From Candidatus Tenderia electrophaga (GTDB lineage Bacteria; Pseudomonadota; Gammaproteobacteria; Tenderiales; Tenderiaceae): 64,000 bases of DNA. The notes under the pieces are model-generated. The model ran no database searches. It was not told where the DNA came from and saw only the letters and a list, made by a program, of their open reading frames with translations. Made by a program: the position numbers and the translations under genes. The DNA lies in contig CP013100.1 of NCBI GenBank assembly GCA_001447805.1, positions 42,767 through 106,766 on the forward strand, given 5' to 3'. Below, piece after piece: positions 25,141 through 63,148 of the stretch; position 1 is the first letter of the stretch, and each line of letters starts with the position of its first letter.

Positions 25141-25152
25141 GGAGTTGCAAAG

Positions 25153-25467: not shown

Positions 25468-25469
25468 TC

Positions 25470-28784: not shown

Positions 28785-28787
28785 GGC

Positions 28788-30131: not shown

Positions 30132-30133
30132 CC

Positions 30134-30760: not shown

Positions 30761-30761
30761 T

Positions 30762-32653: not shown

Positions 32654-32740
32654 ATGACCCGCGCCGTAGCGGGATTCAGTGGTTTGAACTCATTTGATGA
32701 TTTCTTTATATTGACAATGCAGTAGCTCGTTGGGGAAAAA

Positions 32741-33301
32741 ATGAAGTTGGTAGGATGTTTTGCAGTGCTTGCCTGCGTCGGGGTAGCGCAGGCAGGGGAG
32801 TTTGGTTACACCGCCTATGGCGCATCTCTTTCGGTAGATGACCCGGATGGTACGACTAGTAGCACAAGCTACTTGGCGCCGTTTAATGGGTTTTACGCCG
32901 ATTCTCTCAAGCGCGATATCAGATATCAGGTCGAGGCCTTTGCGGATTCCGTGATCCTGGACGCAGGGATCAACCAGATCGGTCAGAAGGTTCAATACCA
33001 AGGCGTAGGTCTATCACTCCAACACCGGTTTCGGCTGACGCCCGATATTAAGCCCTGGCTTGGTGTCGGGGTCGACTATATCGACCTCCGTTATCGCGAC
33101 CGCCACAGTGTCGATACGGGCGGATACCTCACCTATCGATTCCCCGATCGCAGTGAATCCGGTATGAATCTCGTCTTAAATGCCGCCAATTACTGGGCCT
33201 TTTCCCGTTCCTGGGACATCGGCCTCGTCGCCAAACTGGGCCAGCCGGTCGCCTCCGATTCAACATTCTTGAAGATTGGGATTTCCGCGCTTTATAGATA
33301 A
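32741..33301 (+). CDS. Small outer-membrane beta-barrel protein
   Basis: Signal peptide ...GVAQA/GE, beta-strand periodicity, C-terminal ...GISALYR. GC drops here relative to the transfer operon. Confidence 0.55.
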   Translation: MKLVGCFAVLACVGVAQAGEFGYTAYGASLSVDDPDGTTSSTSYLAPFNGFYADSLKRDIRYQVEAFADSVILDAGINQIGQKVQYQGVGLSLQHRFRLTPDIKPWLGVGVDYIDLRYRDRHSVDTGGYLTYRFPDRSESGMNLVLNAANYWAFSRSWDIGLVAKLGQPVASDSTFLKIGISALYR

Positions 33302-33328
33302 TGAAAAATAAATAAGGAGTAGGGTAGT

Positions 33329-37606: not shown

Positions 37607-37656
37607 TAACCCGCTGATTTACGTTAGAATATAGACTCTAAAACCGAAATAACTAC

Positions 37657-37701
37657 AAAAGGATAACGAGACAGCGGGTCTCGTTTATCCAGCTGTTATG
37701 T
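37657..37701 (+). repeat. attC-like site (conserved unit) sitting where attI is expected
   Basis: aaaaGGATAACGAGACagcggGTCTCGTTTATCCagctGTTATGT: the same hairpin unit as the cassette attCs, 50-95 bp from the intI start. Confidence 0.6.
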
Positions 37702-37711
37702 GTAAAAGAAG

Positions 37712-38014
37712 ATGAGCATAAATATCGTCAAGAAAGGAACTTGGCTCTACGATGGAACGGCCGTTAATCCCGTTGACATTATCGCCTTAGACTTTGACTG
37801 GTGGTACGAAATGGTGAAAGAAGAAGATGGGTTGGAAGAGGGAGAACAACCCATACCGCTAGGGGATGACGGTTACATCTACTATGTACGATTTCAACGT
37901 GCGGGTGAGCGCGAACATTCGACCTGGGTTGATTCAGGAGGAGAGAGAAGTTTAAGTGAAGCAATTAAGGTAGCTGAATCAAAAGTTACTGGTGAAATCA
38001 CATGGCTCAACTAA
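37712..38014 (+). CDS. Cassette 1: hypothetical protein (100 aa)
   Basis: ORF bounded by the attC-like site and a heterologous attC. Confidence 0.55.
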   Translation: MSINIVKKGTWLYDGTAVNPVDIIALDFDWWYEMVKEEDGLEEGEQPIPLGDDGYIYYVRFQRAGEREHSTWVDSGGERSLSEAIKVAESKVTGEITWLN

Positions 38015-38017
38015 AAC

Positions 38018-38098
38018 ACATAACAATCGGCTCAAATTCGCTCCGCTTCGCTACGCCGGACGCTCACTCCGTTCGCGCCGTTTAGCCGGGCGTTATAG
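38018..38098 (+). repeat. attC of cassette 1 (81 bp, different type)
   Basis: R'' ACATAAC, L'' CGGCTCAAA ... L' TTTAGCCGG, R' GTTATAG. Confidence 0.7.
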
Positions 38099-38113
38099 CG
38101 CATTGAGGAAGGT

Positions 38114-38857
38114 ATGAGTAAAACGAATATATCTGTCGCTACTATAGGCCACATGCCCAGTGAGTTCGATAAAAGAAAGATCGGTCTCTGGCGTTCGGAA
38201 ATATTCTCTATTGCAGGTGATATCGAAAATTATTCCCTTACAGAAGATTCGGACGGGTATGGATGGGAGTTCAGTGACGAAAGGCTTGAACAACTTTTAC
38301 CAGAGCAGTTCAACGGTGATTTTCTTATTGCCATTGTCAATGTACCTATAGAACTTAATTGGTATTCTCGGAGGCTTAGTAAAAATCGAGTAGTTTTTAC
38401 ATTTCATGAAATAAAGGAAATATTGGATCATTTTAATATTCCTCTGGAAAATGCGGTGTTTAGGCTACTGTATGCGTACACATTTCTGTATAAAAGAAGT
38501 GGCGACCAAATCCCCTTAAACGATGTACCCACGAATTTTGCCCATGATGAAACTCGTGGCTGTCTTTTCGATATGAATGGGATTAAGACTGACATTGTAT
38601 ATTCCTTACATGAGCCTATTATTTGTTCTGATTGCATCGAAAGATTAAGAAAGGAAAAAGTTGCTAACGAAACAATCGACAAAGCACAAAAAGAAATAAT
38701 TCGAATAAAGAAACCACTATTTTATCGAATCGTTTCCTTCGTAAAAAAACATCCTATTTGGTCATTATTCATATCTGCAGTTTCAGCAGTATTTTTAGGC
38801 GCAATAGGCTCCTACATTGCTACAGTGATTTATGAGCTTACCAACCCTGCGCTATAA
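38114..38857 (+). CDS. Cassette 2: hypothetical protein (247 aa) with a C-terminal TM anchor
   Basis: Clean ORF whose stop TAA lies inside the attC R'' box. C-terminal helix IWSLFISAVSAVFLGAIGSYIATVIY. CSDC motif. Confidence 0.6.
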   Translation: MSKTNISVATIGHMPSEFDKRKIGLWRSEIFSIAGDIENYSLTEDSDGYGWEFSDERLEQLLPEQFNGDFLIAIVNVPIELNWYSRRLSKNRVVFTFHEIKEILDHFNIPLENAVFRLLYAYTFLYKRSGDQIPLNDVPTNFAHDETRGCLFDMNGIKTDIVYSLHEPIICSDCIERLRKEKVANETIDKAQKEIIRIKKPLFYRIVSFVKKHPIWSLFISAVSAVFLGAIGSYIATVIYELTNPAL

Positions 38858-38902
38858 AAAAGGATAACGAGACAGCGGGTCTCGTTTATCCAGCTGTTAG
38901 GC
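38853..38902 (+). repeat. attC of cassette 2 (conserved short type)
   Basis: ctataaaaaaGGATAACGAGACagcggGTCTCGTTTATCCagctGTTAGGC. Confidence 0.8.
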
Positions 38903-39332
38903 GCCAGATGAAACCACAATTGAGCGATAAGCGGATATTCGACATTGGCTGGCAATCGAAGAAAATCTTCGTTCACAAATTCTAAGTAATAATGTGAGCC
39001 ATGGGCGTCGGAAAGTCAGTTGTGGCAATTGCCATGACGGGGTAAAGTTTAATAGTTGAGCCGGTGTGGCTTGGCGCGCTTCGTTCGAGGTCGGTAGATT
39101 AAGGCATTGCTTTGGCCTGGCAAATACACAAAGGCCAGGTGGGCAACCGAAAGCTCGAAAAGCCGTGCTCTTCCGCTTCGGCAAGAAAGCGCCAAGCCAA
39201 GCTAAAGGCATTAATAAAAACATGATAGGCAGCGGGGGCGGCCAGTGTGTCGGCAATAGGAACAACTCAATTTCAGTTTTATTCATGTGCGGCACCTCGC
39301 CGCACTCTCCCAAGCCAGGTCAAAGGGCAAGC

Positions 39333-39383
39333 GCCTAAAAAAGGATAACGAGACAGCGGGTCTCGTTTATCCAGCTGTTATAT
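39333..39383 (+). repeat. attC of cassette 3 (conserved short type)
   Basis: GCCTAAAaaaGGATAACGAGACagcggGTCTCGTTTATCCagctGTTATAT. R'' GCCTAAA complements the R' GTTAGGC type. Confidence 0.8.
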
Positions 39384-39872
39384 TTAAAAAAGAAAACTGA
39401 ACCGATACTTAAATACATCATAATAGCTGCCATATTTGTTGGCATTGGCTTTCTTGAAGGCATAATTACAAATCCAACACCTTCTCAGGAGCAATTAGAG
39501 TACCAGTCATATTACGAAGAACAAGCCAGTAAGGAAGCGCTCACGCAAAATGAATATAAAGAGCTTAAAAATAAAGAAACCAAGTTTTTAAATTCGCCCA
39601 TAGAGCAGTCACAAGTAAGCTACTTAGTGACATTCAAGGCCTTGTTCGCTTTTATTTTCTTGGCCGCTATGTTCGTAAGCTATAAATTCATATTAAAAGG
39701 CACAACAATAAAACAAGTTATGCTTTTAAGCGGTATAAGCCTTGTTTCAATTTTCATGCTTGTTTCAACGTTTGAGTTGGTTGTTTACATGATGTTTTGC
39801 ATCTCTGGGGCTCTGCTAGGTTTTAAATATAACAAATCGCTCAACCAGATCGGCGCAAACAACGTGATCTAG
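39339..39872 (+). CDS. Cassette 4: membrane protein; frame open from inside attC, no canonical start before GTG 39627
   Basis: The frame is open from 39339. The translated upstream part (..KYIIIAAIFVGIGFLEGII.. then a charged coil) looks protein-like. The track ORF (39627-39872) encodes 2-3 TM helices. The last codons were altered by the IS3 insertion. Confidence 0.4.
   Translation, partial: KRITRQRVSFIQLLYLKKKTEPILKYIIIAAIFVGIGFLEGIITNPTPSQEQLEYQSYYEEQASKEALTQNEYKELKNKETKFLNSPIEQSQVSYLVTFKALFAFIFLAAMFVSYKFILKGTTIKQVMLLSGISLVSIFMLVSTFELVVYMMFCISGALLGFKYNKSLNQIGANNVI
39827..39864 (+). repeat. Left part of the cassette 4 attC (split by an IS)
   Basis: R'' ATATAAC and L'' GCTCAACC. The matching L' GGTTAGC and R' GTTAGGT lie at 41181-41201 after the IS. 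Confidence 0.6.
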
Positions 39873-39891
39873 CACCACTTTTGTGGACGCC

Positions 39892-40704
39892 TTAAGCCAA
39901 TAGTTTTTCATACATATCTGGCGATTGATAGCCCAATGAGGAATGCAATCGCTCCCGGTTGTAGAATTCAATGTACTCCACAATATGAGCCACGGCTTCA
40001 ATTTCATTTTCAAACATTTTCTGATGAACAAGCTCGGCTTTCATTGTATGGAAATAGGATTCCATAGTGGCATTATCCAGCGGGTTTCCTTTTCTGCTCA
40101 TGCTACGCACAAATCCTGCACCTAGAACCATGTCCCGGAACTCATGAGCGGCATACTCAATGCCTTGGTCAGAATGGAATATACAGTCGGTGTCTGGTTT
40201 GCTTCGTACCAAGGCCATTCTTAATGCGCTCTTCGTCAATTCAGTGTTTCGTTTTTTACTGAACGACCAGCCAACTACTTTTCGGCTGAACAGATCCAAC
40301 ACGACAGCATGATAGATCCATCCATTCCGGGTGCGTATATAGGTGAAGTCACTGACCCACTGCTCACCCACTTTTCCCGGCTCCTGCAGTTCCTTGAGCT
40401 GGTTTCCCGTTGACGAATAAAACTCATGCTGCCCTGGTCTCCACGCATACAACCCTGTCGTTGAGGCCTTAATGCCAAGCTCGCGCATAAGGCGGTTGAT
40501 GCGCCTGCGGCTGCAGCCATAGCCTCGATTACGTAATTCCCAATGCATTCTGGCGGCCCCATAGGCTCGACGATGCCCTTGATGCAACTCACGAATAAGT
40601 TTCATTAACTGAATATCATATTGGCGTCGCTGACTTATCGGGCGTACACGCCAGGCATAAAAACCACTCGTGGAGACACCCAATAAATCACATAATGTCG
40701 ACAC
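39892..40704 (-). CDS. IS3-family transposase orfB (DDE domain; made as an OrfAB fusion by -1 frameshift)
   Basis: ...HSDQGIEYAA... and C-terminal ...FYNRERLHSSLGYQSP. Confidence 0.9.
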   Translation of the reverse strand: MSTLCDLLGVSTSGFYAWRVRPISQRRQYDIQLMKLIRELHQGHRRAYGAARMHWELRNRGYGCSRRRINRLMRELGIKASTTGLYAWRPGQHEFYSSTGNQLKELQEPGKVGEQWVSDFTYIRTRNGWIYHAVVLDLFSRKVVGWSFSKKRNTELTKSALRMALVRSKPDTDCIFHSDQGIEYAAHEFRDMVLGAGFVRSMSRKGNPLDNATMESYFHTMKAELVHQKMFENEIEAVAHIVEYIEFYNRERLHSSLGYQSPDMYEKLLA

Positions 40705-40742
40705 TTTATGAAAACAGCGGTTCTTCTCGATAAATTCAAATC

Positions 40743-41114
40743 TTACCGTCTTGCTTTCGAAAAGAACCGCTTGGCTTTTTTTAGGATATCGAGCTCCTCT
40801 TGCTTTGCTGCCAGAGTCTTCTCGAGATCCTTAATTCGTTTATTAGCTTTTAGTAATTCGGCCTGCCTCTCGACCATGGGATCAGGCTGTGGTTTTGCTT
40901 TCCGGGATGGCTTGGCTTTCTTCTTCATCTGTTTGTTTTCACGCAAGGTTCCATTTTTCTTTTCCATTCGCCAACGATACAACATGACAGGGTGGATACC
41001 TAGCGTCTCCGCCACATCCAGCGCGGTGATATTTGGATGATCGGACAGTTTTATGGCGTGCAGTTTGAATTCCAGAGTGTAGCGGTCATAGTTTTTCTTG
41101 ATGGTCTTTCCCAT
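40743..41114 (-). CDS. IS3-family transposase orfA (HTH)
   Basis: 123 aa, HTH followed by a leucine-zipper-like region. It overlaps the orfB frame at the slippery site. Confidence 0.85.
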   Translation of the reverse strand: MGKTIKKNYDRYTLEFKLHAIKLSDHPNITALDVAETLGIHPVMLYRWRMEKKNGTLRENKQMKKKAKPSRKAKPQPDPMVERQAELLKANKRIKDLEKTLAAKQEELDILKKAKRFFSKARR

Positions 41115-41170
41115 CTTGCGCCTCTTCAGCAGTACAGTGATAAACTGTCCACAAAAGTGGTGCTAGATCA

Positions 41171-41201
41171 ACGCGCCTCCTGGTTAGCTCAACCGTTAGG
41201 T
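41171..41201 (+). repeat. Right part of the cassette 4 attC
   Basis: acgcgcctcctGGTTAGCtcaaccGTTAGGT. Confidence 0.6.
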
Positions 41202-41203
41202 GA

Positions 41204-41728
41204 ATGGTGAATTACACATTGGTAGTAGATTCAGAGCTTTTGAAACTTAGCATTCCTGATAGATTCTTTGAATACGCGGAATCATACGGAAATGGTGCAA
41301 AAGCTCTCGCAGAGAAAATGGTATTTGATAAAGACGAAGCTACTTGGCCAAATGCCGCAGTAGTATTGATGCTATCAGCTCATTCGGTTGAGCTTTTTAT
41401 GAAAGGCGCAATATTCAAATTCGATTCAAAAGCTAAAATTGGGAACCATAATATTGACGCTCTGCTTGAAAAGTACTGCCAAACATATCGAGAAGAAAGA
41501 TATTATTTTGATATGCCATTTAAAACTGAATACCCGGGGATGTCTGAAGAGGAAATAGAGGCTTTGAAAGAAAATAAGCGTCCAACTCCTAGCGTTCTGT
41601 ATAGATATCCAACTGAAACAGGTGAGTCTGAGTGGAAAGGTTCGTATGGGTTTGAGGCGTCTTCGTTTCTTCCGATAATTTCCGGTCTATTGCAGGATTA
41701 TCGAAGGCTGAGAAAGTGTTTCACCTAA
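41204..41728 (+). CDS. Cassette 5: hypothetical protein (174 aa), possibly HEPN-fold
   Basis: SAHSVELFMKGAIF...GNHNIDALLEKY resembles the classical HEPN helix pair. This is a weak call. Confidence 0.5.
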   Translation: MVNYTLVVDSELLKLSIPDRFFEYAESYGNGAKALAEKMVFDKDEATWPNAAVVLMLSAHSVELFMKGAIFKFDSKAKIGNHNIDALLEKYCQTYREERYYFDMPFKTEYPGMSEEEIEALKENKRPTPSVLYRYPTETGESEWKGSYGFEASSFLPIISGLLQDYRRLRKCFT

Positions 41729-41773
41729 AAAAGGATAACGAGACAGCGGGTCTCGTTTATCCAGCTGTTAGGC
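41723..41773 (+). repeat. attC of cassette 5 (conserved short type)
   Basis: ACCTAAAaaaGGATAACGAGACagcggGTCTCGTTTATCCagctGTTAGGC. Confidence 0.8.
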
Positions 41774-41783
41774 GAAAAAATGT

Positions 41784-42833
41784 ATGAGCATTATCGGTAA
41801 GAGTATTTCTAGATCAAAAAAATCTACACTTTCTATTGCTGAAATACTTGCAAAGGAAGGTATGACTAATTTAGTTCCAGGAGGAGGGATTCTTTTCGAT
41901 GGGGCGAAAGTATTATTTGGTCATGGAAGAAAGTATATACAGGATAGGAACGATGAAAGAATATCCGAGTTCCACAATGTTCTAATGTCCCATACAAGTA
42001 GCCCAGAGGAATGTGAAGCGTTATTAAATGGTGAATTTGAAGAGTCAGACTATCATGCAATATTGGGTAGTTGTATACAAGATATTGAGGATGAAAAGAC
42101 CGAGGTTTATGCGCGGCTACTGAGAAGCTTAATAATTGATCCTCCACACAAGAATATAAAGATAATTTTTATTGAAGCATCAAAAAACCTTTCTCTTAGC
42201 GATTTGGAATACTTAAAAGAAATATATATACAGAGTAAATATGACCTAATGACGGTTGGTGGTACCTCTCATCAGATAGAGATTTTATTGAAACAAACAG
42301 ACACAATTAGGGGGATATCTATAAACCGGTTTGTAAATCTCGGTTTCTTGAATAATGAAAAGGCCAATATTACCGAGTTGGCGTCTGATTTCATAAAGCG
42401 AGCTTATGGCGAGGAAAATTTGACTCCTGAAGCTACTGGGAGAAAATCCTGGACCGGTATTAGAATAAGTGTTCTATCGTTTGATATAGGCAATATCGAT
42501 CATTCCATGTTCTATGAAACAATAGAAAGGGATTTGTTCAGCAGACAAATTAAGGCTAACGTCCATAATCTGGATTCGAGAAATAGATTTCGATACGGTT
42601 TATGCCATGGCGGTATCGTGTTAGTAGGTGACGAGGATATTTCTGGCCCATTTCTAGAGGGGTTACAGAAATTTTCGGAAATTAAGCCCTTAGTAAGGAT
42701 CAATATTACCAAGGGCAGTGAAGTTCGAGAAATTGAAGGAGTTTCATTTCAGGGTAGCTATTCTTTGTCTCATTGTTCTAAGAGCAATGTAAAGGAAGAG
42801 GTGCATAGTGTTTTATCAGAAATATTCGCCTAA
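41784..42833 (+). CDS. Cassette 6: hypothetical protein (349 aa)
   Basis: Clean low-GC ORF. I cannot identify a motif with confidence. Confidence 0.55.
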   Translation: MSIIGKSISRSKKSTLSIAEILAKEGMTNLVPGGGILFDGAKVLFGHGRKYIQDRNDERISEFHNVLMSHTSSPEECEALLNGEFEESDYHAILGSCIQDIEDEKTEVYARLLRSLIIDPPHKNIKIIFIEASKNLSLSDLEYLKEIYIQSKYDLMTVGGTSHQIEILLKQTDTIRGISINRFVNLGFLNNEKANITELASDFIKRAYGEENLTPEATGRKSWTGIRISVLSFDIGNIDHSMFYETIERDLFSRQIKANVHNLDSRNRFRYGLCHGGIVLVGDEDISGPFLEGLQKFSEIKPLVRINITKGSEVREIEGVSFQGSYSLSHCSKSNVKEEVHSVLSEIFA

Positions 42834-42947
42834 CAAAAGGCTTCAAGGGACATCACTCCGCGATGCTCGTTTGTGGCTAGATGCCACAAGCCTCACCCCG
42901 CTGCGTAATGAACCGCCCCGGGAATCGCGGAGGCTGTTTGATTTAAG

Positions 42948-43796
42948 TCATGCTGCAATAGCAGCATGACGGCGGTCTTGCCTATAGTAGTTTGCCTCAG
43001 CTTCTGCCGGAGGGATATAACCCAGTGGTTCCATCAGCCGGTGGTGGTTAAACCACGAGACCCATTCCAGGGTCGCCAGCTCCACGGATTCCCGCGTCTT
43101 CCACGGTCCGCGACGATGGATCAGCTCGGCCTTGTACAGCCCGTTGATGGTTTCCGCCAGGGCGTTGTCGTAGCTGTCGCCCTTGCTGCCCACCGAAGGC
43201 TCGATACCGGCCTCGGCCAGCCGCTCGGTGTAACGGATTGAGACGTATTGCGAGCCCCTGTCGCTGTGATGGATCAGGCCATCATCTGAATCGGGCTGCC
43301 GGGCGTACACGGCCTGCTCCAGCGCGTCGAGCACGAAGTCCGTGGCCATGGTACTGCTGACCCGCCAGCCGACGATACGCCGGGCAAAGGCATCAATCAC
43401 GAAGGCCACATACAGCCACCCCTGCCAGGTCGAGACATAGGTGAAGTCCGACACCCACAGCTGGTTGGGCCGATCGGCCTGGAACTGCCGATTGACCCGG
43501 TCCAGCGGGCACGGCAGCGAGCGGTCCAGCACGGTAGTGCGAACGGTCTTGCCTCGGCGTGCGCCCTGCAGGCCCAGGCGGCGCATGAGCCGCTCAACGG
43601 TACAGCGTGCCACGGGAATACCTTCGCGGTTCATCTGCTTCCAGACCTTGTCGGCGCCGTAGACCTGCAGGTTGGCCGCCCAGACACGTTCAATCTTCGG
43701 CATCAGCACATCATCGCGCCTGGCTCGGGCGCTGCGCAGTTCAGGGTTGCGCTGCCGGGCGGCGTGGCGCCGGTAGGCCGATGGGGCAATCTGCAA
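42948..43796 (-). CDS. IS3-family transposase orfB
   Basis: ...IHHSDRGSQYVS... and ...WFNHHRLMEPLGYIPP. The upstream orfB frame reads ...IDQHRDTYGVEPICKVLQIAPSAY. Confidence 0.9.
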   Translation of the reverse strand: MQIAPSAYRRHAARQRNPELRSARARRDDVLMPKIERVWAANLQVYGADKVWKQMNREGIPVARCTVERLMRRLGLQGARRGKTVRTTVLDRSLPCPLDRVNRQFQADRPNQLWVSDFTYVSTWQGWLYVAFVIDAFARRIVGWRVSSTMATDFVLDALEQAVYARQPDSDDGLIHHSDRGSQYVSIRYTERLAEAGIEPSVGSKGDSYDNALAETINGLYKAELIHRRGPWKTRESVELATLEWVSWFNHHRLMEPLGYIPPAEAEANYYRQDRRHAAIAA

Positions 43797-43852
43797 GACC
43801 TTGCAGATCGGCTCGACCCCATAGGTATCCCGGTGCTGGTCGATGTAGGCGT

Positions 43853-44176
43853 TTACGATTTGAGTTTGCGGTCGAGCTCCGCCTGCGCGAAAAAAGCGCT
43901 GGCCGTCTTGAGGATCTCATTGGCCCGGCGAAGCTCCTTGTTCTCGCGCTCCAGCTCCTTGATGCGTTGCATCTCTGCCGTGGTCATCCCCGGACGCGCC
44001 CCGGCATCGATCTCCGCCCGCTTGACCCACTCCAGAAGCGTCTGCGGCACACAGCCGATCTTCGGGGCTATCGACTCAACGGCCGACCATAACGATGGAT
44101 ACTCCCCACGGTGCTCCTGCACCAGCCGCACCGCACGCTCACGGACCTCAGGTGAAAACTTGTTTGTCTTGTTCAT
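43853..44176 (-). CDS. IS3-family transposase orfA
   Basis: [22 protein letters not shown]... is a typical IS3 OrfA HTH. Confidence 0.9.
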
Positions 44177-44226
44177 GGCTCCATTCTCTCAGATGTTGGA
44201 GCCTCCTCAAAACCCGGGGCGGTTCA

Positions 44227-44263
44227 AACGAGACAGCGGGTCTCGTTTATCCAGCTGTTAGGG
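44227..44263 (+). repeat. Truncated attC of cassette 6 (conserved type, 5' end displaced by the IS)
   Basis: AACGAGACagcggGTCTCGTTTATCCagctGTTAGGG. Confidence 0.75.
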
Positions 44264-44275
44264 CGCACAGAACTT

Positions 44276-44770
44276 ATGGACTATGACGACGAACAGACAC
44301 GAGATGTTTATGCGCACTATGGACTAACCATGTATCTAGCGCAGACTCTCGAACATGGAATAGTGAATGCCCTGGTAATTCTCAGGTTACCTGAGAAGGA
44401 CAAATATACTCGTCAAGACATAGACGATTTCATGGAGGGTAGGTTTCAGAAAACTCTCGGGGCTCTGCTCAAGCATCTCAAGTCAGAAGTGGTGTTACCG
44501 TCGGATTTGGAGTCCACGCTAACTGAAGCATTGAACCGAAGAAATTATCTGGCACATCACTATTTCCGAGAAAAGGCGGAGTGCTTTGTTACCCGGAGTG
44601 GTCGAGACCAGATGCTTCAAGACCTTCAAAGCGACCAACAGCTCTTTGAAATAGCAGATGAACAATTGGGAAAGGCACTTACACCATTTCGCGAAAAGCA
44701 TGGAGTTACTGACATTGTGTATGAGGAAGAATACAGGCGCATGTGCCAGAATCTCGGTATCGCGCCCTAA
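44276..44770 (+). CDS. Cassette 7: HEPN-motif protein (164 aa), putative RNase/abortive-infection-type effector
   Basis: An Rx4H motif in ALNRRNYLAHHYF, as seen in many HEPN nuclease families. The stop lies inside the attC R'' box. Confidence 0.55.
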   Translation: MDYDDEQTRDVYAHYGLTMYLAQTLEHGIVNALVILRLPEKDKYTRQDIDDFMEGRFQKTLGALLKHLKSEVVLPSDLESTLTEALNRRNYLAHHYFREKAECFVTRSGRDQMLQDLQSDQQLFEIADEQLGKALTPFREKHGVTDIVYEEEYRRMCQNLGIAP

Positions 44771-56045: not shown

Positions 56046-56060
56046 GGATTAGATATACTC

Positions 56061-56103
56061 AAGTGTTGGGATGTTGAAAGGGATTATCTGCATCCCAACA
56101 CTT
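56061..56103 (+). terminator. Stem-loop terminator after the czc-associated genes
   Basis: AAGTGTTGGGATG, 17-nt loop, CATCCCAACACTT, followed by a weak T-tract. Confidence 0.45.
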
Positions 56104-56436
56104 AACTTCTTTTGATATTGCTAACAATTCTCTTCAATGGATTTGGATAAGGCCAAGATGCTTTAACTTACAATGGCCGCTCTCTCTATAGCGGACATTT
56201 AAACTATCGCCTGTCAAAGGGAGTAACGGGCGCGTTGCTTAAAATCACACACATTTTCTGTAATTCCGCTTTGTCTATACAGCGGCCGTTTTGCGGTGTC
56301 GGGCCGATAGGCAGATGCTTGTCAGGTTCTAGTTACTTATAACCTGTATCTGTCAACGACGGATGACCCCACATTGTGGTAGCGCTAGGTGTGTGTACTA
56401 TATGCCTACAAATGGTTCGTAGGAAGTGTCAGGTGT

Positions 56437-57546
56437 TTAGTCCGCCCCACCGTCTCGAGTGAGATACCGTTTCAAACCGGGCTTTTCGATATGATATTCG
56501 CCCTTGCGAGTCTGGCTGATCAGGTTCGCTTCCGAGAGTCGTTTTATCGATCGCTGGATGTTAGGCGCCACACCTTTGACGTCGGTCTCACGGTCGATTC
56601 TCGCCATTAGCTCCCTTGAGAATGGGTTCTTGCCGTCACAAAGGGCTAAAAAGACAATGCGATCGACCGGCCGCACCTTCTTGGCGAGGGTGGCAAAGCC
56701 CTCGGCGGCCTCCATCAATTGAAGGATGTACTCTTCTGCCTTGGGCAGGGTTTGTTTGAAGGTCACCATATGGGCGATTATCTTCATCATCCAGTAGGGT
56801 GAATGATCCAGGCGTTCGAAAGCCTTCTTGAGGGCTTGGTGGCCTGCATCAATACCGTGCTCTTCCGAAAGCTTGGAGCTCAAGAAGGCGATGAATTCGT
56901 CATCCAGGTCTGGGAAAGGAACTGTCTCAACGAAGTGATAGAACGGCGACTGCGACTCATTGAACAAGAGATTCATGTAATGCCGGGACGATCCGGTAAA
57001 GATCGATTTCACCCGCCCCTGGCGCTTGTCGAGCATGGTCCTGAGGGTGTGGGTGAGCGGATCGAAGACTTTTGATGTGGACAGATGCTGGACTTCATCG
57101 ATCAGCAGCAGTACGGTCTTTTTGCCGGCCTTCTTCTCTAGCTCGCCGAGAAGCTGTTCCAGGTAGGCCAGTTCCTTGTTGTTGGCCTTGGCGGGTGCGT
57201 TGGCGAATTCCACTTCCATTTTGCCCAGCAGCTCGTTGCTGACGGTGGTTTTCTTGATCTTGGCGTTCAGCAGGCGCCTGAGGGTTGCCCGCTTATCGAT
57301 AGTCTGTACCGCCTCTTCCAGGGCCAGGATGAGTCCTTCATGAGGTGCATTTATGTTCTGCCATAGACTGGCATAAACCGGGAGGTAGTTGCGTTTTTGG
57401 GCCAGTGGGGCCAGATCCTGAAGCACAAACAAGGTCTTCCCCTTGCGGCGCGGGGCAATGATGGCCAGGCTGGATGAAATCCCGAGTTCCAGCAGGTTAA
57501 GATAGTGATCGGCAAGTTCGGGCCTGGGGAAATGCCATTCGTCCAT
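56437..57546 (-). CDS. AAA-type ATP-binding protein (Arch_ATPase/DUF234-like) with a C-terminal wHTH
   Basis: Walker A IIAPRRKGKTLFVL and Walker B VLLLIDEVQHL. Confidence 0.65.
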   Translation of the reverse strand: MDEWHFPRPELADHYLNLLELGISSSLAIIAPRRKGKTLFVLQDLAPLAQKRNYLPVYASLWQNINAPHEGLILALEEAVQTIDKRATLRRLLNAKIKKTTVSNELLGKMEVEFANAPAKANNKELAYLEQLLGELEKKAGKKTVLLLIDEVQHLSTSKVFDPLTHTLRTMLDKRQGRVKSIFTGSSRHYMNLLFNESQSPFYHFVETVPFPDLDDEFIAFLSSKLSEEHGIDAGHQALKKAFERLDHSPYWMMKIIAHMVTFKQTLPKAEEYILQLMEAAEGFATLAKKVRPVDRIVFLALCDGKNPFSRELMARIDRETDVKGVAPNIQRSIKRLSEANLISQTRKGEYHIEKPGLKRYLTRDGGAD

Positions 57547-57610
57547 AATTATGCGTCTTTATGCCTAATATGCATAATTATGCATTATATAGGATATTAG
57601 GCATAATTCA
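57546..57610. promoter_or_regulatory. AT-rich repeat/palindrome cluster upstream of the ATPase gene
   Basis: ATAATTATGC appears in two full copies and one partial copy, including the 12-bp palindrome GCATAATTATGC. Flanking inverted repeat TGCCTAATAT/ATATTAGGCA. Confidence 0.45.
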
Positions 57611-57922
57611 AATGACGGCACAGTTCTATCGCCTCAGGCATTCTCGTCCATTGCGCCTGAAAACGGGCGCTTCGCGCAAGGCCCTGCAATGTGCCGGATG
57701 AGGACAGCGCTCGCGCAATCAGTTCCAGCTTGGCAAGCGCCTAATCGCTGAGGCCAAACGAGCTGATGTCCGGATTATTCACCAAGTACCCATTTGATTT
57801 TCCCAATGGTCCTCGCCGGCAAGCCCTCCGGGCCGGGCTACTCCAGGTTCGCTAAACGCTCATCCCTGCAGGACGGGCCTTTCATGTCCCTATTGTCTGA
57901 CGCGTTCCGCTTGTTTGGAAAA

Positions 57923-58181
57923 GGCGCCAACAGAAGCTGTCGCTACTGTTGGGAGCTGTGTTATGGGCCCGGTCGACAGATGCGGCTGCAACTGCCGCCA
58001 GGCCGGTAGATCCGGCTAGGGGCGTTGCCCCACGCGCGGGTCAAGGGGTATCCCCAGCCTTCCGCTGGCCTCCCTTCGGTCGTCCCTTGTGCAGCCCGGG
58101 TGATTCCCCTCCCCTTGCCCCTTGCTACCCCCACGCTTCGCCAGCGGTGCAGGAGCGCCGGCGCCATGCGCTGCCGCTCAA
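57923..58181 (+). repeat. Conserved ~260-nt structured non-coding element, copy 1 (ends 27 nt before the ATG at 58208)
   Basis: Aligns along its full length with 62241-62500. Contains hairpins CCAACAG..CTGTTGG, GGGGCgttGCCCC and GGGGtatCCCC, a C/T-rich tract and a GC palindrome. See findings. Confidence 0.7.
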
Positions 58182-58207
58182 TTTCAAACCACTTAGGAGA
58201 AGCGAAT

Positions 58208-58807
58208 ATGACGATCTACGAACGTATCTACAAGAACCTGGACAAGCTTGGCGTGATGCAGGTGCTGGCTTCGGGCCGGCGCTCGGCCCGCTCCGAGGTC
58301 TCCGGCGTCATGAACTTGCATCTGGATGTCGTCCTGGAGGAATCATCAGGTGTGGTGCGCATTGCCTTGGCGCACTATTTTCGGCAAAGCGGGGATTTGT
58401 GTTGTGACCCGGACATGACGATTCGGATAGACCAACAGCACAAGGTGGCCGAGGCGTTGACCTTCCAGCAGGCGATGCCGCCCGTTTACCAGGAAGTGTA
58501 CCCGGAGCCTGGGCTGGTGCGTCCTAAGTTGAAGAAGGATCTCAATGCCTTTCTCGATCAGTGGCTGAAAAATTGCCTGAGCCAGGGCCATTCGTTCGCG
58601 ACCAAGGTCGTGAGCCGGGCACAGGCCCTGACGCTGGTCTGGCGTAAAACCCATCGAGATTACAAGGCCAAGCGCGAGGACGGCCGGAAGTGGATCATGG
58701 TGTTGCGCCAGGGAGGTTCCACGCTGGTGCCCTTGGATCAGCTCAGCGATGGGGAGATCAAGGATCGATTGCCCCCTGGGGTTGAGCTGGACACTGCCGC
58801 TGATTAA
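58208..58807 (+). CDS. Hypothetical protein (199 aa)
   Basis: ATG with SD AGGAGA. The track ORF (58025-) extends in frame through the repeat element, but that extension is Pro/Arg-rich and non-coding-like. Confidence 0.6.
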   Translation: MTIYERIYKNLDKLGVMQVLASGRRSARSEVSGVMNLHLDVVLEESSGVVRIALAHYFRQSGDLCCDPDMTIRIDQQHKVAEALTFQQAMPPVYQEVYPEPGLVRPKLKKDLNAFLDQWLKNCLSQGHSFATKVVSRAQALTLVWRKTHRDYKAKREDGRKWIMVLRQGGSTLVPLDQLSDGEIKDRLPPGVELDTAAD

Positions 58808-58982
58808 GGCGAGCGGCGCCAGGTCCGAACGGGGAGCATCGCTCCCCGTGGACACGGCGGCCCCAGCTGGGGCTGTCGAGGGCCGGGATGCCCTGAAGGA
58901 TGGCCCAATAGAGCCTAGAGGGCTGATTGGACATAACTCCCATATGGGACTAATATTATCATATGGTATTATTGATGGAGGT

Positions 58983-59378
58983 ATGGCCATGCGACACCAG
59001 CCCATGACCGCACCGGCGAATGTGGGCCCCGCCGCATTACGCACGTTTTTCAATATCCTTGAGCGATGGGGCTTGGGCCCCAGGGAAGGGCAAACGCTGC
59101 TCGGCACCACAAGCAGCACCTATTTTCGCTGGCAGAAGGATCCCGAAAAGGCCCACGTCGACGCCGATAAGCTGGAGCGGATCTCTTACATCTTCGGGAT
59201 CTACAAGGCGCTGCACCTGATCTACAGCGATGATGCTGTCGCTGATGGCTGGATCCGGCGGGCCAATATGAATCCGTTGTTTTCCGGGCACCCGCCCCTG
59301 GAACGGCTGCTGGCGGGGCATGTCGCCGACCTGTATGTCACGCGCCAACACCTGGATGCGCGTCGGGGTGTGATTTGA
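58983..59378 (+). CDS. Xre/MbcA/ParS-type antitoxin (DUF2384)
   Basis: ...TYFRWQKDPEKAHVDADKLERISYIFGIYKAL...WIRRANMNPLFSGHPPLERLL... SD GGAGG upstream. Overlaps the RES gene. Confidence 0.8.
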   Translation: MAMRHQPMTAPANVGPAALRTFFNILERWGLGPREGQTLLGTTSSTYFRWQKDPEKAHVDADKLERISYIFGIYKALHLIYSDDAVADGWIRRANMNPLFSGHPPLERLLAGHVADLYVTRQHLDARRGVI

Positions 59379-60070
59379 ATATCCCGTTCACAGAGGACAG
59401 CTGGCCGCGGGCCTACAGGATCATCAGCAGCCGCTTCCCGCCCGTGGGCATATTCGACAGTGTGGCGGATCCCGCCGACCTGGAGGCAGTGTTTTACGTA
59501 GAAAACTTGACGAATCCACGCACCCGCGAAGAAATGGGGCAGATTGAGCTGGTCAAGCCCGAGGACCAGGTGGCGGGGCCGGGGACAACGCCCATCATGG
59601 CGGCATTTACCCATGTAAATCCGCCCGGCAGCCGTTTCAGCAACGGCGAGCATGGTGTCTATTACGCCGCCAAGTCCCAACACACCGCGATCGCGGAGAC
59701 GGTCTTTCACACCGAGCAATGGGCGCGCGAGGCGAATGACCCGCCCACCTCGTTTGTGATGAGGGTCTATATCGGCCGGCTGAATAAGCGCGCATATCAT
59801 GACTTACGGGGGCAACGGGATACGTTTCCTGATCTTTTCGACCCTGACCCCGCGCACTACGGTCCCACCCAGCGCCTGGGTGCCCAACTGCGCCAAGCCG
59901 ACAGCTGGGGCCTGCTCTACGACAGTGTCCGCGACCCGGACGGCCAATGCGTCGCCGCCTTCAGACCCCCAGCCTTGGGTGCCGTCCACCAGGCTGCCCA
60001 TCTGGCCTACGCCTGGGATGGTGAGAAGGTTATTGACGTTCTGGAGTTGCGCTCGCTGGGTTTGCCGTGA
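59375..60070 (+). CDS. RES-domain toxin (MbcT/ParT-like NAD-targeting)
   Basis: ...PGSRFSNGEHGVYYAAKSQHTAIAE... and ...GLLYDSVRDPDGQCVAAF give the R-E-S pattern. Confidence 0.8.
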   Translation: MNIPFTEDSWPRAYRIISSRFPPVGIFDSVADPADLEAVFYVENLTNPRTREEMGQIELVKPEDQVAGPGTTPIMAAFTHVNPPGSRFSNGEHGVYYAAKSQHTAIAETVFHTEQWAREANDPPTSFVMRVYIGRLNKRAYHDLRGQRDTFPDLFDPDPAHYGPTQRLGAQLRQADSWGLLYDSVRDPDGQCVAAFRPPALGAVHQAAHLAYAWDGEKVIDVLELRSLGLP

Positions 60071-60370
60071 TCTGGCTATCGAAAAGCCCGCATGTGACTG
60101 GGTTTGTAAAGACAAGCTGTCTGTGCGTATTGTGGCCATGCTGGCGTTGTCCAGGCAGGCCCCCCTTCATTTCAATGTCTTCGTGATACCCGGTCTGTGA
60201 TTCTATCGACTCGACCGGGTCCCTTTACAGCTGGGGAATTGCGATCGGTCTCAGAGCTCCTCTACTGCAGCCTTGCGCGCTTGGCCTTCTAACCAGGATG
60301 AAAGGCTTTTCTTTGGCGAAGGCCTAAGCGTCGGTGGAGCACCCACCGGAATAGGCTATGATAGCGAAGG

Positions 60371-61633
60371 CTATTGAATGGCAAAGTCCTTATGCAGCCT
60401 TTGCCAATGCGCTCGCAAGGCTGTTTTGTGCGCGTCCATCATCGGCGCACCCTCAAGATTTTCAGGCCACGCACCGCGCGCCGCCTCCATAACATCGTCC
60501 AGATGGGGCTTGATCGCCCGCCAAGGCACACCCACAGAATTTGCCCATGTTTCAAAGTGCTCCATGGTCATGGCGTACCACTCCTTGTTGCCGGCCAGGT
60601 TGAGGGATATTTGGGACTCGCCCGGAATGTAGGCCTGGGTATAGACGATGTCATAGGCCGGCGCCAGTTCCGCGGTAATTCGATTTGGGTAGATTAGGCT
60701 CCAGTTTTTCAAGTGCGCATCACCGTTGCCCAGCAGGATATTCACGAGCAAGCGCCTTGCCATCTGCTGAACATTGGCCAGGCCAAGACCCGTGAATTGG
60801 TAGAGTACCTTGCCAAGCTGCTCGAAGCTGGCGGTGCTGTACTTCTCGTGAGCATACTTGAACAGCACTTGCGCAAAATCCTCGGCGTGGACTCGGCCAC
60901 GCTGCGCATGGCGGTCATACCGGCGAATGGCATAGGCGTATGGTTCGCTCGGAAGGTTGAGCGGCGGCAGGTCCTGTAATCGGTCCAGCTGCACCAGCCT
61001 GATTTCGGGTATCTCGACACCTGCCAATGCGGCCAGCGTCATGGCCGTGTATTCGTTCACCGGCACACCCTGATGACGGGTGGAGGGAGTCTTGACAATC
61101 CACTCCCCCAGGGAGTCTGGCTGCGAGATATTGAAGCGGCCATCGGTTTCATGCATGGAGAATTTCATCTGCACACCGGCCAGCGAGAAGTGTGGCTGTC
61201 CATGCGACACCCTTTTCGGCACCGCCTCCACTCGGGTCCGGTGATCCAGCACGCCCTCGGGGATCTGCTCAGGCGCCACCGGCTCAGCCACCAGGGCGCC
61301 GGGCAGGTCGGTCCCGACTTGGGCAAAGAGGGGGAATTCATTGTCGGGATGCACTTTGAGCGTTTGGGCAAACCAATTCCGCAATGCACCTTCCGGCAAC
61401 AAATTGGAGAGTACCGGGTGCAGACGCTGTTGGCGCACCCAGGGGGATGCGTAAATCTTGCCGCTGGCTGGATGATCGGTAATCCCGGAAAGAGTGAAGG
61501 TTGGGCGGTCCGGATCGGCCACATAGGCGGGATCAAAGACCACTATATTGCGGCCGGCTTGGTAACCTGCCAAGTAACCCACCGTTATCCCATGTAGACT
61601 GAGCTTGAGGACCTCGACCGTCTCCGTCGCCAT
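60371..61633 (-). CDS. hipA: HipA-family kinase toxin (second, divergent copy)
   Basis: SLAGVQMKFSM and LLGNGDAHLKNWSLIY motifs. Confidence 0.85.
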   Translation of the reverse strand: MATETVEVLKLSLHGITVGYLAGYQAGRNIVVFDPAYVADPDRPTFTLSGITDHPASGKIYASPWVRQQRLHPVLSNLLPEGALRNWFAQTLKVHPDNEFPLFAQVGTDLPGALVAEPVAPEQIPEGVLDHRTRVEAVPKRVSHGQPHFSLAGVQMKFSMHETDGRFNISQPDSLGEWIVKTPSTRHQGVPVNEYTAMTLAALAGVEIPEIRLVQLDRLQDLPPLNLPSEPYAYAIRRYDRHAQRGRVHAEDFAQVLFKYAHEKYSTASFEQLGKVLYQFTGLGLANVQQMARRLLVNILLGNGDAHLKNWSLIYPNRITAELAPAYDIVYTQAYIPGESQISLNLAGNKEWYAMTMEHFETWANSVGVPWRAIKPHLDDVMEAARGAWPENLEGAPMMDAHKTALRAHWQRLHKDFAIQ

Positions 61634-61636
61634 GGC

Positions 61637-61924
61637 TTACAGCACCTCCGACCACGGGTCTTCATGCGTCTCTGTGTCGGCGGACCTTGCCTCGTCGCCA
61701 CCGTCTCGCAGCAGCGCCTTCACCGCCAGCAACTTGTCCTTAGGCACCAGCACCAGCTCCGCCTCTAGCCCCTCGGCCACTAACTCCAGGGTCTTCAAAC
61801 GCGGATTGCCCCCCGCCTCAATGCGCTGGTATTGCTGTTGGTCCATACCGATGCGCAACTTCATATCCGTCTGTTGGAGGCCAAGCTGGAGACGGCGGGC
61901 TTTGATTTGGGGGGTCAGTTTCAT
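61637..61924 (-). CDS. hipB: XRE-family antitoxin (HipB-like)
   Basis: IKARRLQLGLQQTDMKLRIGMDQQQYQRIEAG. Immediately upstream of hipA. Confidence 0.75.
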   Translation of the reverse strand: MKLTPQIKARRLQLGLQQTDMKLRIGMDQQQYQRIEAGGNPRLKTLELVAEGLEAELVLVPKDKLLAVKALLRDGGDEARSADTETHEDPWSEVL

Positions 61925-62240
61925 GAGGGCGCCAATACAACGTAAATGTTGTATTTACTATAGAGACAATCTAAACGTTGTGCAATGCCGAATATACATC
62001 ATATATGATGTAATTGTGCGCATTCGAACCCGGCATAAGCCAAATTACAACTTATATGATGTATCTAGGACGCATTCAATCGAATACTCTGGCCGGCAAA
62101 CGCCGTCGGTGGGAAGGGGGTTGGATTCCCCGCTTGATGCCTCCGGGCCGCAGATTTCGGAGGTCATGGGCTCCCCCATTCTTAATTTAGAGCAGTTCCT
62201 CTAGTTTCCTATAGCGCCACGCCTGCTGCTTCGCTGACCT

Positions 62241-62500
62241 GGTGCCGACAGAAGCTGACGCTACTGTCGGCGGCTGTGTATTGGGCCTGGTCAACAGATG
62301 CTGCCGCAACTGCCGCCAAGGCGAGGAAGAGCCACTAGGGGCCTTGCCCCACGCGCCGGTCAAGGGGTATCCCCAGCCTTCCGCTCGCCTCCCTTCGGTC
62401 GTTGTTTGTGCAGGCCGGGTGATTCCCCTCCCCTTGCCCCTTGCTACCCCCACGCTTCGCCAGCGGTGCAGGAGCGCCGGCGCCGTGCGCTGTCGCTCAA
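62241..62500 (+). repeat. Conserved ~260-nt structured non-coding element, copy 2 (ends 30 nt before the klcA ATG)
   Basis: Same element as 57923-58181. Here it is out of frame with, and separated by a stop from, the downstream gene. Confidence 0.7.
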
Positions 62501-62529
62501 ACATTCAATCACGATAAGAGGTGAAGCTA

Positions 62530-62952
62530 ATGAACAATACTATGGACCTAGAAATGCCGGTGACCGCGACGCAGGTTCGGGATGCGGATCGAGTGAAGAT
62601 GCTGCCAAAATATTTTGGGCGGGATCTGATGCGGGTTGAATCGGCGATCTACGCTTTCATGGATCGGTTATGTGAGAACTACCAGGGTGGCTATTGGGAT
62701 TTCTATGAGCTGTCGAACGGTGGGTTCTATATGGCGCCGGCAACGGAGGAAATGCTGAACCTGAGTTGGGCGGAGAACTATTTTCAAGGGGAAATGAGCG
62801 CCGATGCTGCCGGGGTTGTGGCGTGCCTGTTTGCTTACAACCACCTGGCCTGGGAGACGCGCGATGAAAGCTTGATCCTGATGTATGAGTCTTTACGTGA
62901 ATATGTGGGCTTTCATACTGAAGCCAGTCTGATTTTTAGGGCGATTGATTAG
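62530..62952 (+). CDS. klcA: Antirestriction protein KlcA/ArdB family
   Basis: LPKYFGRDLMRVESAIYAFMDRLCENYQGGYWDFYELSNGGFYMAP...GEMSADAAGVVACLFAYNHL...IFRAID closely parallels RK2 KlcA as I recall it. Confidence 0.85.
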   Translation: MNNTMDLEMPVTATQVRDADRVKMLPKYFGRDLMRVESAIYAFMDRLCENYQGGYWDFYELSNGGFYMAPATEEMLNLSWAENYFQGEMSADAAGVVACLFAYNHLAWETRDESLILMYESLREYVGFHTEASLIFRAID

Positions 62953-63148
62953 ACCCGTGGGGCGGCTGTGGCCGCCCTCCTCCCTCTGGTCCTGCGGGAG
63001 CGGGATGTGATGAAAAATAGATTGGATCATCTTTGGCTGTGGGGGGAGAGTGCTCATTTGAACACGAATTCGGAGATGATAAACTAGATTTGAAGTGTTG
63101 CTTAACCTCATCATGACCCCCGTGAGCGTGGATATGGCACTTCTTTTC

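Follow-up and report, generated by a model that had tools for sequence, protein, structure and literature searches.

To our knowledge, single-strand promoters are the only known route by which anti-defence genes are expressed before the second strand of an incoming plasmid is made, and they have been characterised only in F and in the IncI plasmids of Enterobacteria. The first class, the Frpo or ssi hairpins, comprises the single-stranded DNA (ssDNA) promoters of F and ColIb-P9 (PMC9849209; PMC11541004). F carries two of them, Frpo1 and Frpo2, which share 92% identity and flank the flm toxin-antitoxin locus at a distance of about 5 kb from each other (PMC9849209). In pESBL and F, ssDNA promoters of classes 2 and 3 lie upstream of klcA/ardA and of M.EcoGIX; their hairpins rebuild -35/-10 boxes and their start sites have been mapped (PMC12672017). 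The three classes described are all from IncF and IncI plasmids (PMC12672017), and large surveys have extended single-strand promoters only by homology or by a search for -35/-10 boxes (PMC11541004). Two structured motifs are also relevant here: the radC motif (RF01754), found in putative 5' untranslated regions of radC, of integrases, of methyltransferases and of an anti-restriction protein, and STAXI (RF01728), which consists of tandem pseudoknots with UUCG loops in Enterobacteriales and for which the authors considered ssDNA action (PMC2864571). Here we describe an element that is present twice in a 64,000-nt stretch of Candidatus Tenderia electrophaga (contig CP013100.1, positions 42,767 to 106,766; hereafter the window), once ahead of a gene for a DUF6908 protein and once ahead of the anti-restriction gene klcA. 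The element is conserved, structured and non-coding, and by analogy with Frpo it may act as an early-expression signal in the strand transferred during conjugation (T-strand).

In layout the locus resembles F. Like Frpo, the element is non-coding and stands upstream of establishment genes of the leading region (ssb, psiB, ardA and ygeA in F and IncI), and its near-identical copies lie a few kilobases apart with toxin-antitoxin genes between them: the window copies are 4.3 kb apart and enclose Xre-RES and HipA genes, as flmAB lies between Frpo1 and Frpo2. The copies at 57923-58181 and 62241-62500 have the same orientation and can be aligned from end to end, as claimed in a preliminary description of this DNA made from the letters alone. 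Only three repeat families of at least 40 nt occur in the 64 kb and the element accounts for two of them (D2 and D3), the repeat finder having split the pair into the first 83 nt (83% identity) and the last 166 nt (95%). Over the last ~85 nt the copies differ at two positions only (58171 A/G and 58174 C/T), in accordance with the first count. Copy 1 ends at 58181, 26 nt ahead of the ATG at 58208, with a Shine-Dalgarno (SD) sequence AGGAG at 58195-58199, and copy 2 ends at 62500, 29 nt ahead of the ATG at 62530, which bears out the short spacing to an SD and start codon reported earlier. The gene behind copy 2 had been called klcA, and a domain search agreed (PF03230 Antirestrict, KlcA/ArdB). 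A covariance model built from homologues scored copy 1 at 62.0 bits and copy 2 at 66.9 bits; with filters off, the next-best place in the 64 kb reached 12.8 bits, so the model finds exactly these two places. A single 1-nt insertion or deletion between the copies shifts the reading frame, the homologous cores (83-99 nt) populate all three length classes modulo 3 (43/36/21) and no period-3 conservation was detected across them. The element is therefore non-coding, as had been proposed, and a small protein is ruled out.

The element belongs to a widespread family. The first blastn search against plasmids recovered its central ~150 nt in plasmids of Sedimenticola, Thiothrix and Paracoccus, always upstream of and on the same strand as a gene for an ArdC-like zincin, an N6 methylase, or a DUF4942 or DUF2958 protein. 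An exact 22-mer of the core was present in at least 120 genome contigs and its hosts, among the matches listed, were Alpha- and Gammaproteobacteria, Acidobacteriota, Planctomycetota and a few others; blastn of PLSDB with a sphingomonad copy returned 120 places in 63 plasmids. The 22-mer core pattern had no match in 2.9 million viral contigs. In nearly all of about 118 unique instances the core is followed, at a distance of 73-171 nt and on its own strand, by an SD and a start codon. When the 93 genes standing first behind the element were classified with Pfam, the domains were ArdC N-domain (30), zincin MPTase (26), DUF3768 (13) and ParB_N (6), with a few each of DUF2958, DUF6908, DUF6876, DUF932, N6_Mtase, Antirestrict, DUF1419 and others, in agreement with the claimed position ahead of genes for anti-restriction and establishment in a conjugative element. 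To a large extent these families are those of the F leading region (methylase, KlcA-like, Ssb, ParB-like, PsiB and DUF932). A locus can hold up to three copies within 8 kb, each ahead of its own operon, and 20 of the 21 multi-copy loci have all copies on one strand.

No entry in the databases searched accounted for the family. Rfam 15 gave nothing at the element, either at gathering score over the whole window, where the sole match was an ALIL pseudoknot elsewhere, or at E<=10 over 57500-63000; a gathering search of eight diverse related loci was likewise negative at the element. STAXI, to which the preliminary description had pointed, is also found near Ssb, anti-restriction and integrase genes, but it has no match at E<=10 in 57500-63000 and its tandem pseudoknots differ from the nested rod hairpin of the element. 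The radC motif shares with the element a position before DNA-acting genes and an absence from phages; its covariance model, however, matched neither the window nor the eight related loci, the core words of the element are missing from the published radC alignment, and the motif is described as a sense-strand RNA. An exact-sequence search of the literature did not find the core, and a keyword search found only the work on enterobacterial ssDNA promoters. The family thus appears new by its sequence, architecture and hosts, with no match in Rfam 15 and no description in the literature searched. A further candidate, the Rhodopirellula-1 motif (Weinberg 2010), looked promising by its taxa, but its sequences resemble integron attC sites and it was set aside.

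The core structure was derived from two alignments, one of 76 non-redundant cores (A3) and one of 100 model hits (A5). In both, the core is a nested rod hairpin of about 85 nt. Written in the sense orientation, its closing helix P1 joins a variable 7-nt stem and GGGG to CCCC and the complementary 7 nt; an internal loop follows, with TN on the 5' side and T-CCCCC-T on the 3' side; P2 pairs TC-CCC with GGG-(T)-GA, the T being bulged, and P3 pairs RNCCT with AGGYC. Above these lies an apical internal loop (TCC..GTGC), and a short variable hairpin forms the tip. Of the pairing cells 89.2% are complementary; shuffles gave 74.8%, and sliding the partners brought the figure to 58.8% or less. Double-sided changes occur in 13 of the 21 pairs. 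Compensatory cells number 316 against 113 in shuffles, a value reached by none of 500 shuffles, and A3 behaved similarly. Copies found by the model and not by the 22-mer still carry GGGYGATCCCCCTCCCC almost intact, while their inner helices, invariant in the other copies, show compensatory changes, namely A-T at 27-79, C-G, A-T and T-A at 28-78 and T-A at 29-77; in one of them GGGG/CCCC is swapped for CCGG/CCGG. This covariation revises the hairpins first drawn by eye. The compensatory change from CCAACAG/CTGTTGG to CCGACAG/CTGTCGG is real. The proposed GGGGtatCCCC hairpin does not form as such, since the partner of GGGG is the distal CCCC of CTCCCC and that of the adjacent CCCC is GGG(T)G; the C-rich tract, once suggested to make a pseudoknot, pairs in a nested manner; and the GGAGC/GCTGC stem found no support. 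A G-quadruplex on the G-rich strand was rejected as well, the G-runs being base-paired according to the covariation.

Additional modules flank the core (Table 1). The hairpin GGGGCnnnGCCCC, presented earlier as a key hairpin, does exist (H0, GGGGC-nnn-GCCCC) and is kept across lineages with varying inner pairs, but it is peripheral to the rod. Downstream of the core are an ACCCCC linker and two hairpins, H3 and H4. H3 is present in 85 of 111 unique instances and its three inner pairs covary family-wide (TA/CG, CG/TA/GC and GC/CG/AT/TA). The first ~90 nt of the window repeat are lineage-specific, and the differences between the two copies keep pairing in both of its hairpins.

Several related loci carry features of their own. 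Caulobacter-type copies (L008:5432-5560, L032:4090-4220 and L054:430-553) have a variant H3 (GCTCATTGGCGCCGG) and, between element and gene, an AT-rich palindrome (AACATCTTTATC ... ATAAAGATGT) that may be a repressor operator layered on the element. Two related Paracoccus loci hold an extra inverted copy with a 70-aa open reading frame (ORF), downstream of the ArdC operon (L017:1756-1990 and L102:200-288), which hints that the element plus a gene is able to move as a cassette. Group II introns, recognised by reverse transcriptase/maturase genes and by the Rfam families group-II-D1D4-6 and Intron_gpII, lie in or beside the ArdC genes of related plasmids (L130:37137-42957 and L010:3228-6634). 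In L130 the annotated ArdC coding sequence overlaps the element copy at 40200-40286, and the ArdC start is probably mis-annotated.

Three independent lines of evidence indicate that the folded strand is the template strand (minus in the window), complementary to the genes, and show that selection acts on the template-strand fold. Among the non-Watson-Crick cells of the helices, read in sense, A·C outnumbers G·T by 83 to 10, and A·C on the sense strand means a G·T wobble on the opposite strand; pairs 27-79 and 28-78 alternate between G-C, A·C and A-T and never show G·T. Within the 5' extension of the window copies, three one-sided differences keep pairing only via G·T on the minus strand. The second line is the apex, which has the form n-C(GNA)G-n' on the minus strand of 48 of the 76 cores and on the plus strand of none (shuffles: mean 2.5, maximum 8), as GCGCAGC (15), GCGAAGC (10), CCGAAGG (8), CCGCAGG (8) and others. 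The d(GCGAAGC)-type loop is a classic extra-stable DNA mini-hairpin and is not a favoured RNA loop. Finally, the composition-controlled z-score of the core is lower on the minus than on the plus strand (-2.87 vs -2.25, p = 6e-5), and with DNA parameters the minus strand had the lower minimum free energy in all five pairs tested, with P1-P3 reproduced; the DNA fold of the minus strand of copy 2 also recovered P1-P3.

The preliminary description had left the choice between an ssDNA signal and a 5' leader RNA, and wobble asymmetry, C(GNA)G apices and z-scores favour the former over a sense-strand leader. Such a leader, transcribed from an upstream promoter, would control translation or stability through its fold or through a C-rich tract resembling an anti-SD (GAUCCCCCUCCCC). 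It would fit the tight spacing to the SD and ATG and the fact that the element is always on the strand of its gene, and the radC motif offers a precedent, being leader-like before DNA-handling genes including one for anti-restriction (PMC2864571). The pentaloop hairpin H3 and H4 adjoin the SD and lack a strand preference, T·G at an outer H3 position, seen in one clade only, is a sense-strand wobble, and 8 of the 76 apices read C(UUCG)G in sense. On the sense strand, however, the exceptional pairs of the core are A·C and not G·U, the covariation paths through G-C, A·C and A-T belong to the opposite strand, GNA triloops occur on that strand only, and the sense strand folds worse, both with composition controlled and with DNA parameters. 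Nor was a conserved or consensus promoter seen upstream of the element; a consensus scan for sigma-70-like promoters on the sense strand of the two divergent intergenic regions was negative, a result that cannot decide the matter because the same scan was also blank on the F Frpo2 control. We consider a leader RNA unlikely as the explanation of the core, while H3 and H4 may act in the transcript as RNA.

The same minus-strand wobbles and better minus-strand folding would also be produced by a small antisense RNA gene, pairing with the leader of the establishment gene as FinP does with traJ, and in a Thiothrix plasmid the copies have a ProQ/FinO-family gene close by. A consensus scan revealed no antisense promoter-like site downstream of either window copy, inspection revealed no terminator-like U-run after the minus-strand structure in any lineage, and the apical loops are C-G-closed GNA triloops, a DNA-stability motif, instead of GNRA or UNCG tetraloops. 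An antisense RNA, which would also leave the co-orientation with the relaxase (see below) unexplained, is in our view very improbable, and we infer that the folded molecule is DNA. Equally remote from the evidence as a whole is a site acting as double-stranded DNA, either bound by a protein (operator or centromere-like) or recombined along with gene cassettes. The very conserved sequence blocks and the many different genes downstream would suit such a site, as would the operator-like palindrome after some Caulobacter-type copies and the inverted, cassette-like copy of L017 and L102. Compensatory covariation in 13 of 21 pairs is nevertheless not expected of a duplex site and strand-asymmetric wobble is inexplicable for it. 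As for recombination, the core alignment lacks the RYYYAAC ... GTTRRRY boxes of integron attC sites, and the core is unrelated both to the attC-like repeats of the window (family D1, described below) and to Rhodopirellula-1.

The polarity of transfer relates the folded strand to conjugation. In the Sedimenticola plasmid the + strand between the traJ-like and traK-like genes carries an inverted repeat and, behind it, TATCCTG|C; judged by its sequence this is an IncP-type nic motif and origin of transfer (oriT). In RP4 transfer of the nicked strand proceeds 5' to 3', leading away from the relaxase operon, and with an IncP-type nic on the + strand this would make the + strand the T-strand. Both element copies of this plasmid, with their operons (ArdC-ParA-ParB-Fic and methylase), are on the - strand, and the folded strand would thus be the T-strand. 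In P. tegillarcae pBM151, locus L042, Sphingopyxis pRW412c and S. yanoikuyae plasmid unnamed4, the element is upstream of and co-oriented with the relaxase operon, pointing to oriT, as in the F layout. All five plasmids with inferable polarity therefore place the folded strand on the T-strand, and Frpo also folds in the transferred template strand. In the region of pPZ02 no relaxase was found within 50 kb. We regard the structural and contextual claims as strong and the assignment to ssDNA and the T-strand as well supported but indirect; in the window itself the folded strand would likewise be the T-strand.

These observations lead us to suggest that the element is a cis-acting ssDNA early-expression signal in the T-strand, working like Frpo, a proposal to which we give about an even chance of being right. 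For the genes that follow the element, the T-strand would be the template. Upon entry into the recipient, the G-rich complement of the written sequence would fold into the rod hairpin, with its covarying closing stem, a conserved inner stem with a bulged base, a conserved purine-rich internal loop (mostly AGGGGGA, but AGGGGAA in the window copies) and, at the tip, a very stable C(GNA)G mini-hairpin. With this structure the first establishment genes could be expressed ahead of complementary-strand synthesis, namely the DUF6908 gene and klcA in the window and ArdC, DUF3768, ParB-like, methylase or DUF932 genes elsewhere. The hairpin could also delay or prime complementary-strand synthesis. Speculatively, the asymmetric internal loop could be a pre-opened bubble, with synthesis starting at the GA of GAUCCCCCUCCCC. 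From the genomic context and the analogy with Frpo we infer that the element drives transcription.

All of the evidence for template-strand and T-strand folding would also apply to a site that primes or stalls complementary-strand synthesis without promoting transcription, using host DnaG or the PriA primosome, or a plasmid toprim or TraC-like enzyme. Mini-hairpins of the d(GCGAAGC) type occur in the single-strand origins of phages, the conserved minus-strand GGCCTGCAC contains CTG, and both pRW412c and S. yanoikuyae unnamed4 include toprim-domain genes in the co-oriented block of the element. Frpo hairpins themselves also prime DNA synthesis (Masai and Arai 1997, as reported in a paper citing it) and block it (bioRxiv 10.64898/2026.01.09.698686). 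However, nothing obliges a priming or roadblock site to precede a start codon by 73-171 nt almost without exception, or to be repeated ahead of every operon, up to three times in 8 kb, and the Sedimenticola plasmid has no annotated primase. In addition, each window copy occupies the space between divergent genes, a place that calls for a promoter: the neighbours upstream (56437-57546 and 60371-61633) read from the opposite strand, and each copy therefore stands at the head of a transcription unit. We therefore judge it rather unlikely that the element serves only in complementary-strand synthesis.

A number of observations weigh against the early-expression signal. By inspection neither a TAnnnT or TTGACA-like box nor an A/T-rich hexamer fit to be a -10 lies at conserved core positions on either strand, and the hairpin, at ~85-145 nt, is shorter than Frpo, a rod of ~330 nt whose Frpo2 copy reaches z = -6.1 over 391 nt; the GC-rich element cores of 85-145 nt range from -0.95 to -4.5. 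The window copies alone are barely better than shuffles (z -0.9 to -2.0; -1.97 on the minus and -0.87 on the plus strand for the window element of 276 nt); the evidence for structure comes from the homologues. H3 and H4 are without clear strand preference. Most instances were gathered by the exact 22-mer, so its near-invariance is partly an ascertainment bias. Orientation is not absolute either: locus L031 has two convergent copies, and the extra inverted copy of the related Paracoccus loci L017 and L102 lies 3 kb from mobC-relaxase, these three loci being exceptions to the polarity found in the five plasmids. Finally, no relaxase or oriT was recognised in the window with Pfam and NCBIfam.

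The element is not a member of the Frpo family. Within the F leading region, which holds Frpo1, Frpo2 and the class 2/3 homologues, its covariance model scored at best 15.6 bits (E = 0.09), away from the Frpo sites, and blastn gave only E>=0.2. The element shows no obvious -35/-10 boxes, has a purine-rich internal loop and a GNA mini-hairpin tip, and is hosted by Alpha- and Gammaproteobacteria, Acidobacteriota and Planctomycetota rather than by Enterobacteria. The class 2 and 3 promoters stand before the same downstream families (klcA and DNA methylase), their hairpins too are without homology to Frpo and the two class 2 copies are alike; yet nothing similar to the element was found in the 48-70 kb region of F, which includes its methylase and klcA-like genes. 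A functional analogue of Frpo is the most economical reading. The hairpin promoters of the phage N4 virion RNA polymerase are short DNA hairpins with a 3-nt purine loop closed by C-G; they serve as signals on a single-stranded template and need a phage-encoded single-subunit polymerase. Their likeness to the element, as that of d(GCGAAGC) mini-hairpins, is limited to the type of apical loop, and no single-subunit phage polymerase was seen with the element. Other boxes noticed by eye, a DnaA box (TATCCCCA), a sigma-32-like pair (CTTG..CCCCCT), sigma-54-like boxes and the Caulobacter -10 GCTANAWC, lie at no position conserved across lineages.

One possibility, which we regard as doubtful, is that the hairpin is an ssDNA start signal that does not imitate a sigma-70 promoter at all and whose near-invariant unpaired bases are read directly. 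On the T-strand these would be the loop AGGGGGA, the bulged A, GCAC...GGAA and the C(GNA)G tip. They could be recognised by a deeply conserved enzyme of the host (its RNA polymerase or its primase), or else by a protein that accompanies the DNA, for instance a toprim protein or an ssDNA binder of the ArdC/TraC type. If this were correct, the element would be a phylum-independent ignition switch for establishment genes and would help to explain broad-host-range transfer outside Enterobacteria. If the element lacks sigma-70 boxes, it would represent a different way of starting synthesis on ssDNA. For the early-expression signal more generally, the family provides a concrete candidate for the equivalent of Frpo in environmental and broad-host-range elements, being found in plasmids and likely integrative and conjugative elements of Alpha- and Gammaproteobacteria, Acidobacteriota and Planctomycetota. 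In genomes without annotation it could also help to locate leading regions, to read off the polarity of transfer and to find new anti-defence genes.

Table 1. Features of the two element copies and their neighbourhood (window coordinates; CM, covariance model)
Feature	Position	Strand	Remarks	Basis
Repeat unit, copy 1	57923-58181	+ (as downstream gene)	predicted folded strand -	pairwise alignment, repeat families
Repeat unit, copy 2	62241-62500	same as copy 1		pairwise alignment, repeat families
Core rod hairpin, copy 1	58038-58121	-		CM 62.0 bits, covariation, strand evidence
P1, copy 1	58038-58048 with 58111-58121			
P2, copy 1	58051-58055 with 58098-58103		T58101 bulged	
P3, copy 1	58057-58060 with 58093-58096			
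Conserved internal loop, copy 1	58104-58110		TTCCCCT (minus strand AGGGGAA)	
Apical variable mini-hairpin, copy 1	58064-58088			
Core rod hairpin, copy 2	62357-62440	-	architecture as copy 1, offset +4319	CM 66.9 bits
H0, 5' flanking hairpin	58019-58031; copy 2 62338-62350		GGGGC-GTT-GCCCC	inspection of sequences
H3	58134-58146; copy 2 62453-62465		4-bp stem closing pentaloop TCGCC (58138-58142)	
H4	58153-58179; copy 2 62472-62498		variable strong hairpin before A/T-rich linker and SD	
Window-specific 5' extension	57927-58002	-	two hairpins, 57927-57952 and 57968-58002	
DUF6908/DUF1249 protein, 199 aa	58208-58807	+	first gene after copy 1	domain search
Xre-like antitoxin and RES-domain toxin	58749-60070	+	between copies; antitoxin start codon uncertain	domain search
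HipA-like toxin kinase	60371-61633	-	between copies, divergent from copy 2	domain search
klcA/ardB anti-restriction gene	62530-62952	+	first gene after copy 2; PF03230 Antirestrict	domain search

The remainder of the window holds several other features. Genes of a type IV secretion system form a very divergent block at 23168-36211, in which most large ORFs have no Pfam match and the weak matches are VirD4-like (23168-24778), TraC/VirB4-like (25688-28117) and VirB10/TrbI-like (31667-32653). An integron follows at 36548-44281; its integrase (36548-37606, -) matches TIGR02249 with 398 bits, and after it come five repeats of 45-67 nt (family D1) ending in GTTAGGC/GTTATRT, at 37653, 38854, 39335, 41725 and 44215, which resemble attC sites at the borders of gene cassettes. 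Within the cassette array lies the ALIL pseudoknot (RF01497, 111 bits, 43782-43898, -), the frameshift signal of an IS3-family insertion sequence. Two large ORFs of 510 and 621 aa at 5007-8401 (-) matched no Pfam family, and in NCBIfam the first of them showed a weak likeness (E = 1.7e-9, well short of the curated cutoff) to MAD7, a protein of the methylation-associated defence system. There are two HipA-family toxin kinases in the window, at 15574-16791 (+) and 60371-61633 (-), and the latter is, with the Xre-like/RES pair, one of two toxin-antitoxin modules lying exactly between the element copies. The AT-rich segment at 61985-62073, upstream of a 95-aa ORF (61637-61924, -) that precedes hipA, contains repeated TATATGATGTA...GCATTC(A)A motifs and gives weak symmetric Rfam matches on both strands (mir-144, E = 0.3), indicating that it is palindromic; it may be the operator region of hipBA. 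An AT-rich, near-perfect hairpin (AAGTGTTGGGA ... TCCCAACACTT) at 56053-56110, behind an ORF ending at 56045, may be a terminator.

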